DNA of 42,021 nt from a virus (lineage: Duplodnaviria; Heunggongvirae; Uroviricota; Caudoviricetes), in the IMG/VR virus record IMGVR_UViG_2703718855_000003, positions 1-42,021 of that record, one strand, 5' to 3'. The position numbers were made by a program, and so were the translations under genes. Below are positions 5,613 through 6,950 of this stretch, one piece after another. The notes below the pieces were generated by a model. It saw only the letters and a list, made by a program, of their open reading frames with translations. It was not told where the DNA came from and did not search any database. Position 1 is the first letter of the stretch. Each line of letters begins with the position of its first letter.

Positions 5613-5638
5613 AAAAAACCCGCTTTCGCGGGTTTTTT
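5613..5638. terminator. Intrinsic terminator hairpin downstream of the inserted nuclease gene
   Basis: AAAAAACCCGCTTTCGCGGGTTTTTT: 5-bp GC stem, 4-nt loop, A-run and T-run on either side (bidirectional); lies between the 5641 stop and the J-like start at 5600. Confidence 0.55.
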
Positions 5639-5640
5639 AC

Positions 5641-6801
5641 TTATTCAACCTCTTCTAAACTGCTCACTCTGGACCCTCGGCGGAAATTATCATCATTTTT
5701 AACATACTCATATGAATCCAGAATCAAACCAGATATGCGAAGTATATCTTCCGGATTAGTTATATGTATCCTTTTACCATCCGTATCAAGTCGAGCTCGT
5801 CTTATTTCATTCAACTGAACTTCACTAAGCGAAATAGGTAATGTTATAAATGAAGATTTTTTATCATAAAATCTTAACAGCCATCTATTAGTTTTACCAT
5901 TCAATAGTACACCAAAATATGACTCAGTATCTTTATATTCTATATTATCTTCTGTTTGTATGATTTGTTTTACCCTTTCAAATAGTTCCAATTCTTTGGC
6001 TGTGGTTATTATGTTGGGGTTTTCTTCATCAACAATGGCGTTATTAACTTGTGTATCCGTTGCATCATTTTCTTTAGTTTGCTCTACCGGTTGTGTAGAT
6101 AGCCCGGAAACCACCATTGCGCTAACAGCGCGCTCAACGGCCTGTTTAACTAATGGAGTCACGAACTCAAGAAATCTCTGATTAAGTTGTCTCTCAATAT
6201 TTGAACGACTAGCAACATATCGAACAAACTCCAGATCAACTTCACGAAGACTAGAACTGATTGTTTTAGTAAATGAATTCAAATAAACACTTTCTTCAGC
6301 CAGTGTCCGTAAAGCCTCTGGTTTGAATTTATCATAACGAAAACGAAATAATTGTGTAATATCGGAGTGAGTTAGAGAATCCATTCTTATTTTTAAAAAC
6401 GGCGTTGAATCCATTATGTTTTTTTGTTTCAAATCCGTAAAAAAACGCCATTCAACACCATTTGTAATGGCTGATATAGTAACTTCCGGTGTTGAATTAA
6501 AATATCTTGATAGCTGTGGGCAGTGATTATCAATTTGTTCTGAAAACGATTTCGCCTCAATGAACATCACAGGAACATCATGACAAAATAAAGCGTAATC
6601 AACCCGTTCATTAGCCTTAACCCCGGGGAAGTCAGCACTATACTCAGCTTTGACTTTTCTTGGATCATACGGAGTAAAACCAAGAATATCTAGTAATGGC
6701 ATAATGAGTGCTTGTTTTGTCGTTTCTTCAGTTGTACAAAACACCCCCATTTTTGCAACATGCTCTGTGTGTATTTTTAACTTATTTGCAAAATTTTCCA
6801 T
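5641..6801 (-). CDS. Stand-alone PD-(D/E)xK nuclease-domain protein (HsdR N-terminal / Mrr-like core) with unknown C-terminal domain; moron
   Basis: Track ORF 5641..6816; ATG at 6801 has a GGAGGAGA Shine-Dalgarno. N-terminal region contains ...ERVDYALFCHDVPVMFIEAKSF...ITNGVEWRFF..., the D...E-x-K core pattern of the HsdR_N family. Gene is visibly AT-rich versus flanking tail genes. Confidence 0.6.
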   Translation of the reverse strand: MENFANKLKIHTEHVAKMGVFCTTEETTKQALIMPLLDILGFTPYDPRKVKAEYSADFPGVKANERVDYALFCHDVPVMFIEAKSFSEQIDNHCPQLSRYFNSTPEVTISAITNGVEWRFFTDLKQKNIMDSTPFLKIRMDSLTHSDITQLFRFRYDKFKPEALRTLAEESVYLNSFTKTISSSLREVDLEFVRYVASRSNIERQLNQRFLEFVTPLVKQAVERAVSAMVVSGLSTQPVEQTKENDATDTQVNNAIVDEENPNIITTAKELELFERVKQIIQTEDNIEYKDTESYFGVLLNGKTNRWLLRFYDKKSSFITLPISLSEVQLNEIRRARLDTDGKRIHITNPEDILRISGLILDSYEYVKNDDNFRRGSRVSSLEEVE

Positions 6802-6950
6802 GCTTGTCTCCTCCATGGTAACAATATGTATTTTGCAAATCCGAAATAATATATGTCAATATGCTCCAGCTTAGAAAATTACTCGCCCCCCTAAAATATC
6901 TCTCTACAGCACTCCAAACCAAGGTAAAAGTTTTATCATAAAACTGTGAT

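Follow-up and report, generated by a model that had tools for sequence, protein, structure and literature searches.

A position directly after the lysogeny repressor, such as that of lambda rexAB and of BstA (Salmonella phage BTP1), is typical of exclusion genes that are expressed in lysogens. These genes offer one comparison for the subject of this report, a gene of 386 codons plus stop on the minus strand (5641..6801) of the Caudoviricetes record IMGVR_UViG_2703718855_000003, of which the whole analysed stretch of 42,021 nucleotides (nt) is here called the window. Other comparisons come from restriction enzymes. In HsdR and RecB nucleases the QxxxY motif is functional, and it is required for efficient cleavage by EcoR124I HsdR (Sisakova et al.; PMC2475608). 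The structures closest to McrB-N, the reader of McrBC that flips 5-methylcytosine, are 2a8e, 3mqz and YjbR (PMC3424535). YjbR and the C-terminal domain of MotA are treated as a DNA-binding fold, and YjbR is found fused to EVE readers and to nucleases (PMC7641849). On the evidence set out below, we consider with moderate confidence that the gene encodes a single-protein nuclease that is made in the lysogen and keeps out incoming phage or other foreign DNA. An earlier note on this DNA had proposed a single-gene insert with a plausible anti-phage function, and its interpretation as a whole is partly supported.

The encoded protein shares with HsdR of Type I enzymes (EcoR124I) the HSDR_N and HSDR_N_2 families, the D, ExK and QxxxY residues, and its nearest solved structures. 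Unlike HsdR, it has no superfamily 2 (SF2) motor and no HsdM or HsdS, is about one third of the length, and carries an unrelated C-terminal domain; for lack of a motor and partners, and because of this second domain, its database name of 'type I restriction endonuclease' is misleading. With Type IV enzymes such as McrBC it has in common a nuclease that lacks a cognate methyltransferase and is joined to a separate non-catalytic domain, and the structural neighbours of that domain (2fki, 2a8e, 3mqz) are those reported for McrB-N. It differs from them in having no NTPase, no direct match to a reader family, and a C-terminal domain that is acidic overall. The same domain is unlike the MotA C-terminal domain, YjbR and YdhG in its net negative charge and in having no sequence-profile match. 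Relatives of the gene resemble rexAB and BstA in position: they directly follow a repressor, share its strand and are the final gene ahead of a terminator. There is, by contrast, no sequence or fold kinship to RexA, RexB or BstA, and the window copy lies in a tail gene cluster. The locus is also similar to the P22 immI region and to lambdoid morons: a unit of foreign base composition, comprising a putative promoter, a gene and a predicted terminator, occupies a late or tail region; relatives have an AntA module in this slot; and a Yersinia homolog stands behind an Arc/Mnt-type repressor in a tail cluster. The cargo here is a nuclease, in contrast to the antirepressor or surface-modifying genes of those systems.

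Domain architecture of the nuclease

The open reading frame (ORF) extends over 5641..6816 on the minus strand and encodes 391 amino acids (aa) from its first in-frame ATG at 6816; residue numbers in this report are counted from that codon. The start codon is ATG 6801, as indicated by a GGAGGAG Shine-Dalgarno sequence at 6814-6808, by homologs that open with MENF or MDNF, and by the same start for the identical gene of E. coli genomes in the Prokaryotic Genome Annotation Pipeline (PGAP), so that the frame 5641..6801 described earlier is open with a well-backed start. The 386-aa product is identical to WP_000426902.1, which PGAP labels 'type I restriction endonuclease', and it has a full-length match to phrog_4225 'endonuclease' (E 4.7e-149, PHROGs).

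The N-terminal part, aa 6-138 (6403..6801, minus strand), was delimited from Pfam, an alignment of homologs and a structural model. Residues 30-135 match Pfam HSDR_N (PF04313) with an E-value of 5.6e-14, scoring 52.9 bits where the cut-off is 25.1, and HSDR_N_2 is also matched above its cut-off (E 2.4e-09). The homolog alignment held 64 sequences, both from Enterobacterales (62-87% identity) and of Clostridia type (31-40%). D73, E87-x-K89 and Q101xxxY105 are invariant in all 64; the D...ExK residues are the catalytic core, and QxxxY is the RecB-family motif. Their codons on the minus strand are at 6600-6598 (D73), 6558-6556 (E87), 6552-6550 (K89), 6516-6514 (Q101) and 6504-6502 (Y105). The HsdR/Mrr-like D...E-x-K core that had been read from the letters is thereby confirmed, and the possibility raised with it, that profile searches would find no nuclease fold, is answered by the HSDR_N score.

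A full-length AlphaFold model was made from the homolog alignment, with a predicted local distance difference test (pLDDT) score of about 90 at residues 1-160 and 270-380. The nearest structures in a Foldseek search of the full model against the PDB were HsdR nuclease domains, namely 3h1t (probability 0.97) and EcoR124I, in agreement with the earlier expectation of an N-terminal PD-(D/E)xK hit; the E-values of this search are weak (best 0.029), yet the HsdR matches are consistent. By motif and predicted fold, the N-terminal domain is a catalytically complete HsdR/RecB-type PD-(D/E)xK nuclease. No SF2 helicase or translocase family (ResIII / Helicase_C) was found in the 386 aa with Pfam and NCBIfam, and the NCBIfam HsdR equivalog scored 18.9 bits against a cut-off of 729 bits. 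Lacking a helicase motor and falling so far below that cut-off, the protein is not a Type I restriction subunit despite its database name.

The name, together with the fact that only the N-terminal domain matches HsdR, might suggest a functionless, decaying remnant of HsdR, stripped of motor and partners. This explanation is barely credible and is effectively refuted by conservation across the family. Full-length architecture, length and catalytic residues are conserved from Enterobacterales to Methanococcus, and the protein includes a conserved, well-folded C-terminal domain that is not found in HsdR. The family matches more than 1300 clusters at 90% identity, and copies of the gene itself in 25 E. 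coli genomes have identities of at least 99%.

Between the two domains lie a helical middle region (aa 139-236; 6109..6402, minus strand), which is conserved, has pLDDT values of 58-79 and may be a spacer or an oligomerisation region, and a linker (aa 237-266; 6019..6108, minus strand), which is variable in sequence and always acidic. The linker is disordered in the model at residues 237-262, with pLDDT below 50 at 237-258. Its net charge is -6, and the family mean is -5.9 (range -10 to -1).

A C-terminal domain with a YdhG/YjbR/MotA-like predicted fold

The earlier note had found nothing recognisable in the C-terminal 250 aa or so, and at the level of sequence residues 140-391 indeed have no Pfam match at E <= 0.1. 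That view is changed by the structural model. When residues 262-391 are modelled alone, the pLDDT is 88.5 and the predicted template modelling score (pTM) 0.79, with the topology alpha-beta4-alpha-beta-alpha. The predicted domain of about 110 aa shares the three-dimensional fold of YdhG (DUF1801), YjbR/DUF419 (PF04237) and the C-terminal domain of T4 MotA. It is placed at aa 267-378 (5683..6018, minus strand), as an alpha/beta domain of the CyaY-like or 'double-wing' fold group, and its structural neighbours include YjbR 2fki, 2a8e and 3mqz. D296, Y300, W312 and R315 are invariant in the homolog alignment.

The similarity is one of predicted fold. Pfam gave no sequence-profile membership in the YjbR (PF04237), DUF1801 or MotA C-terminal domain families, and PDB sequence searches with the protein, a full-length profile and a C-terminal domain profile returned nothing meaningful and no solved structure; haemagglutinin matches in these searches (E 0.17) were set aside as noise. 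A Foldseek search of the domain against viral structures found only uncharacterised proteins, with E above 0.01. McrB-N is absent from the best 60 structural matches, and the domain did not directly match McrB-N, SRA, EVE or comparable readers of modified bases. The overlap between the neighbours of the modelled domain and those of McrB-N is accordingly a lead, and not family membership. The invariant Asp/Tyr/Trp/Arg set could build a base pocket.

A profile of this domain matches 825 clusters at 50% identity, which are mostly HSDR_N fusions. Other fusion partners are an RNase_T/DEDDh exonuclease, WYL and Haem_oxygenas_2; in the protein P0326, for example, the exonuclease spans residues 41-195 and the C-terminal domain 214-326. 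Since it is fused to several other domains, the C-terminal domain is a portable module. Matches to nSTAND3 and AAA in a 172-aa fragment bearing the domain were below curated cut-offs and were not used. Basic residues that are conserved in the domain are K295, R315, R349 and R360.

A cargo slot between two tail genes

The gene is contained in a cassette that is replaced in related prophages. Alignments with Rac-SA53 and with 'Actinobacillus' phage pPE4 place the whole swapped interval at 5601..6950, from the start codon of a J-like gene to the stop codon of a gene in the position of gpW. The flanks are about 95% identical to those of both relatives, the cassette is unmatched, and homology ends just past the J-like start codon and restarts at the W-position stop codon. 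Rac-SA53 and pPE4 have two or three genes in this slot, encoded on the opposite strand and including one for an AntA-domain antirepressor. The nuclease cassette is present at >=99% identity in 25 of 5,426 complete E. coli genomes; the other 66 matching genomes mostly share one or both flanks and carry cargo of the AntA type. Gene conservation at this position in all relatives, which would have suited a baseplate component, is thus not what is found, and the proposal of a single-gene insert is upheld by the breaks in homology at the J-like start and the W-position stop.

The W and J genes were said to be normally adjacent in baseplate clusters of this kind, and here the earlier note needs correction: they are adjacent in none of the relatives of this phage lineage that were examined, and no empty W-J junction was seen among the related prophages. 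Because relatives hold other cargo and no junction is empty, the W-J interval is a standing accessory slot of which the nuclease is one of the alternative cargoes. A slot with antirepressor cargo recalls the P22 immI region. The alternative cargo at two such loci (L001 4623-6491 and L002 4623-5678) comprises the AntA gene and one or two others whose products match nothing in Pfam or PADLOC; one of these products opens with a signal-peptide-like sequence.

The downstream flank (4374..5600, minus strand) is a Baseplate_J family gene of 408 aa by Pfam, whose GGAG ribosome-binding site at 5609-5606 is inside the cassette, so the J-like designation stands. The 115-aa gene on the upstream side (6951..7298, minus strand) matches only phrog_7986, a PHROG of unknown function; its identification as gpW was dropped for want of profile support, and 'W-position' refers here to place and size only. 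There is no methyltransferase, helicase, specificity, HsdM or HsdS gene near the nuclease gene in the window, as had been noted earlier.

Base composition sets the gene apart. In 400-base pair (bp) windows its guanine plus cytosine (GC) content is 0.33-0.38, compared with 0.43-0.53 in the flanks, and over the whole gene it is 0.353 against 0.472 for 3 kb on either side, bearing out the contrast first seen by eye. Replacement in relatives, sharp boundaries, foreign GC content and a predicted terminator together support the view that the gene is a moron-type single-gene insert.

Such a layout, an AT-rich self-contained cassette between conserved phage genes with a patchy occurrence over distant taxa, would also suit a free-standing homing endonuclease, which cuts genomes that lack the gene near its insertion site and is copied in during repair. 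A nuclease joined through a flexible linker to a possible DNA-binding domain is the build of I-TevI-like enzymes, and PD-(D/E)xK homing enzymes exist. Several observations make this quite unlikely. Relatives without the gene hold unrelated cargo of similar size instead of an empty site, and no obvious conversion tract is seen in the flanks, each of which has about 95% identity to relatives. The family is found at many unrelated positions, including beside CI- and Mnt-type repressors, at Q-stx and Q-lysis sites and amid housekeeping genes, and tight coupling to a repressor on the same strand is not expected of a homing gene.

Predicted expression signals at the cassette ends

Upstream of the gene is an AT-rich spacer (6802..6950, minus strand) that contains the Shine-Dalgarno sequence and a promoter-like site. 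The spacer had been given as about 134 bp with a TTGACA hexamer; the hexamer is present, at 6859-6854, and the length of 134 bp applies when counting from 6816, the spacer being 149 bp when counted from the 6801 start. The hexamer forms the -35 element of a site on the minus strand that continues, after 18 bp, with CAAAAT at 6835-6830 as the -10 element. TTGACA-18-CAAAAT agrees with the consensus at 10 of 12 positions and is among the two best sigma-70-like matches in 4300-8400; as promoter-like sites are not enriched in this region, it is counted as a consensus match only. The site is not kept in homolog copies from other contexts.

Downstream, an intrinsic-terminator-like hairpin at 5613..5638 (minus strand) has the form A6 - CCCGC GAAA GCGGG - T6. 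Its sequence, AAAAAACCCGCGAAAGCGGGTTTTTT, occupies 5638-5613, beginning 2 nt past the stop codon and ending 12 nt ahead of the J-like start codon, exactly where a hairpin and T-run had been described. The predicted folding energy is -17.7 kcal/mol, with a z-score of -4.75, a stability matched by none of 200 shuffled sequences. A consensus terminator scan omitted this hairpin, probably because extension of the stem consumes the T-run. Being symmetric, it could act as a terminator in both directions. From the hairpin and T-run, the gene is predicted to have its own terminator.

A further structure in the same region is a perfect 14-bp GC-rich inverted repeat at 7510-7543 of the window, GAACCCCCCGACTG-6 nt-CAGTCGGGGGGTTC, which separates a V-like spike gene (7581..8294) from a 67-aa ORF (7295..7498). 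The repeat also occurs in RM11911, but an exact search of the Rac-SA53 and pPE4 loci did not find it.

Distribution of the family and its genomic contexts

Family members of about 375-390 aa with the same architecture occur from Enterobacterales to Clostridia and Methanococcus. About 15 homolog contexts were examined for their neighbours. Of all the evidence, the positions of these relatives bear most strongly on function. Five separate lineages have the homolog immediately behind a lysogeny repressor, both genes being on one strand, and two others have small ORFs between repressor and homolog. In Klebsiella phage KpF5 (66% identity) it comes after a Rac-type repressor, with an annotated ORF of 99 nt overlapping the gene start. 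In Citrobacter prophages (71% identity) it is 22 bp past a repressor of the HTH_3 + Peptidase_S24 type, in four mosaic backgrounds, and Salmonella prophages (65% identity) of three backgrounds have it 31 bp past a CI-type repressor. A Yersinia prophage (75% identity) has it 37 bp past an Arc/Mnt-type repressor, inside the tail and baseplate cluster of a different phage. The homolog of Corynebacterium phage Juicebox immediately adjoins the repressor on its downstream side. The order in S. pneumoniae phage IPP25 is repressor, one small ORF, homolog and integrase, and in Clostridium phage CWou-2020a the homolog is two small ORFs past regulators.

Other positions are also used. In the Stx2 prophage of E. 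coli JNEC-KY177 (L009 6968-8125), a copy with 78% identity lies antisense between Q and the methylase/tRNA/stx2 block, and a copy at 87% identity is found between a Q-like gene and the lysis genes. A copy at the same type of Q site as that of L009, in locus L014, shares upstream sequence that contains two TTGAC/TTGTCA elements. Porphyromonas phages have the homolog beside HicAB and an anti-CRISPR candidate. Plasmid-borne copies occur in Nostoc, Rhizobium, Curtobacterium and Borrelia, and one copy outside phages in Clostridium adjoins genes for a Schlafen-like helicase and a MazG-like protein. Lone chromosomal copies amid housekeeping genes are present in Edwardsiella, Gilliamella and Methanococcus maripaludis. 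The M. maripaludis copy (L028/L029 4001-5125) is 60% identical to a Clostridium phage protein, a closeness that points to recent transfer between domains of life.

What travels with the gene is limited. Copies in Enterobacterales all have 35-38% GC in surroundings of 47-55% GC, and those of Gram-positive bacteria match their hosts. Most copies are followed by a hairpin and T-run, each unrelated to the others in sequence. The sequences that flank the gene on either side are likewise unrelated between contexts, except for two copies that share a Q-lysis site. Since promoter and terminator sequences do not accompany the gene, only the ORF is the mobile unit. No HsdM, HsdS, methyltransferase, helicase or other partner is conserved in the approximately 15 contexts; some copies do have a methylase nearby, but as an ordinary phage gene and not as a conserved partner. 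As no neighbour is conserved, the protein is taken to work alone.

This solitary organisation bears on a further explanation, in which the gene is an addiction toxin or serves another lysogeny function, for example as a barrier to plasmids or transforming DNA, or as a modulator of induction in place of the antirepressor that it replaces. The replacement of an AntA antirepressor module at the same slot, the nuclease without a visible immunity partner and the existence of plasmid copies would fit. We judge it very unlikely, given that no antitoxin-like neighbour is conserved in the contexts examined and that lone chromosomal copies imply a protein that is not toxic by itself. Exclusion of plasmids or transforming DNA overlaps with the favoured explanation rather than opposing it.

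The family is already annotated and widespread, and a single-protein nuclease in a prophage is of a familiar kind; it is the second domain that is unfamiliar. A check against defence-system models had been suggested earlier, and it brought no support: no model of PADLOC-DB v2.0.0 matches the query or the Citrobacter copy with 71% identity, and divergent members of the family give weak matches in the N-terminal domain to the nuclease heads of Type IIG enzymes. A literature search covering the family, the accession, HSDR_N in prophages and HsdR-like systems of phage-inducible chromosomal islands (PICI) found no functional study. The DefenseFinder model 'FS_HsdR_like' is said to represent an HsdR-like anti-phage gene of E. 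coli and Klebsiella mobile elements (PICI), reportedly described by Fillol-Salom and colleagues in 2022. If that model and the present proteins are the same family, the nuclease finding is already known, and this is the main risk to its novelty.

State of the host prophage

The window is a Rac-family E. coli prophage, with recE, kilR, ydaT and hokD, that adjoins ompN and uspF. Outside two deletions it is 99.98% identical to the intact prophage of E. coli strain RM11911. The first, of 3,975 bp with its junction near position 17127 of the window, removes genes from the portal-like gene through the capsid region and leaves a chimeric ORF of 398 aa (17118..18314, minus strand). The second, of 1,320 bp with its junction near 27653, removes DUF1367, DUF1364 and most of a Q-family antiterminator gene (DUF1133 / Phage_antitermQ). 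Among the 5,426 complete genomes that were searched, the junction of the first deletion is present in one only, that of strain VG48B2, and because of this restricted occurrence the prophage is regarded as a recent defective derivative. With head genes and the Q-family gene deleted, this copy cannot make virions and has probably lost late transcription. The nuclease cassette is intact in the defective copy and 100% identical to that of intact relatives.

These observations can be set against the possibility of a nuclease of the lytic programme, acting in recombination or repair, in degradation of host DNA or in counter-defence. The gene is on the late-gene strand, so late transcripts would include it, the copies in Porphyromonas phages are in a block with the anti-CRISPR candidate, and PHROGs files the phrog_4225 family under DNA, RNA and nucleotide metabolism. 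We nevertheless regard a lytic role as unlikely. The gene is dispensable for the phage, since close relatives with 95% identity elsewhere do without it, and it remains intact in a prophage that is unable to make virions. Many lineages tie the homolog to the lysogeny repressor, and induction turns this repressor off; lone chromosomal copies have no phage nearby.

Two other regions of the prophage carry genes of potential interest. In RM11911 a 478-aa gene right after the large terminase (L008 21842-23278) is named 'anti-CBASS protein Acb1 family protein' by PGAP. Its position and size suggest a portal, and the Acb1 name may be an annotation artefact or reflect a fused domain; in the window this portal-like gene is truncated by the 3,975-bp deletion. 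At 1..690, on the minus strand and continuing past the window start, is a 229-aa ORF with no Pfam match. In RM11911 (L008 43444-45233) this ORF shares 4 bp with the gene downstream of it, which has HTH_3 and Peptidase_M78 domains (ImmA/IrrE-like), at the prophage end next to uspF, and the two may constitute a second, two-gene accessory module.

Proposed role in the lysogen

The explanation that we favour, exclusion of foreign DNA by a nuclease made in the lysogen, can be put as a series of steps. The gene would be an autonomous, horizontally mobile moron in the W-J cargo slot of a Rac-family prophage, transcribed in the lysogen from its own putative promoter up to its own predicted terminator. 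Its product would be a single-chain DNA endonuclease made up of the nuclease domain, the acidic flexible linker and the YdhG/YjbR/MotA-like domain, the last of which may select the target or sense a trigger. The nuclease would then cut the DNA of superinfecting phage, or other incoming DNA, and so shield the lysogen. Expression of the window copy in the lysogen is extrapolated from its repressor-linked relatives, which lend indirect but strong support.

Several points weigh against this explanation. The window copy lies in the tail cluster and not next to a repressor. Its putative promoter is a consensus match only, with a weak -10 element (CAAAAT), and promoter-like sites as a class are not enriched in 4300-8400 (13, compared with 8.0 +/- 3.3 in shuffles). 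In an intact phage, a terminator placed 12 nt before a gene as essential as the J-like one would carry a cost, unless antitermination acts on late transcription; in the intact relatives late transcription presumably reads through the hairpin, which would fit the Q-family antiterminator that they, RM11911 among them, encode. PADLOC has no model for the family, divergent members included. Finally, the whole protein is acidic, and so, mildly, is the C-terminal domain, with a net charge of -3 (family mean -2.6). Together with the always-acidic linker, this disfavours simple electrostatic binding of DNA, and therefore a role in sensing or autoinhibition is equally open for the C-terminal domain.

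As to how host DNA is spared, the protein cannot freely cut ordinary host DNA, since it has no methyltransferase and yet is tolerated as a lone chromosomal gene. One possibility, which we put forward tentatively, is that the C-terminal domain guides the nuclease to something not present in host DNA, as Type IV restriction enzymes do. A somewhat more doubtful one is that the nuclease is latent, perhaps by way of the acidic linker, until the C-terminal domain meets a phage signal, in the manner of abortive infection. The broadest proposal is also the more speculative and is rather improbable: the family would consist of widespread, unrecognised single-chain immune nucleases in which the C-terminal domain is a new specificity module, recruited repeatedly to the repressor operon in at least four bacterial phyla. 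The module would be either a base-flipping reader of phage modifications that employs D296, Y300, W312 and R315, or a sensor of a phage product that releases autoinhibition by the linker.

Biological significance

The family spans Proteobacteria, Firmicutes, Actinobacteria, Bacteroidetes and a methanogen, and it is missing from a major defence-finding database. If the protein is protective, a compact single-gene system of about 1.2 kb would be added to the immunity that is borne by prophages. A domain that goes unrecognised by current profile libraries would also gain a function, and the widespread name 'type I restriction endonuclease' would be corrected. The W-J junction of Rac-SA53-like prophages would become a defined slot that holds either an antirepressor module or the nuclease, useful for the mining of further accessory genes. 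Genes of this type influence which phages can superinfect a strain, which bears on phage therapy and, through the copy located between Q and stx2, on the biology of Shiga-toxin phages.

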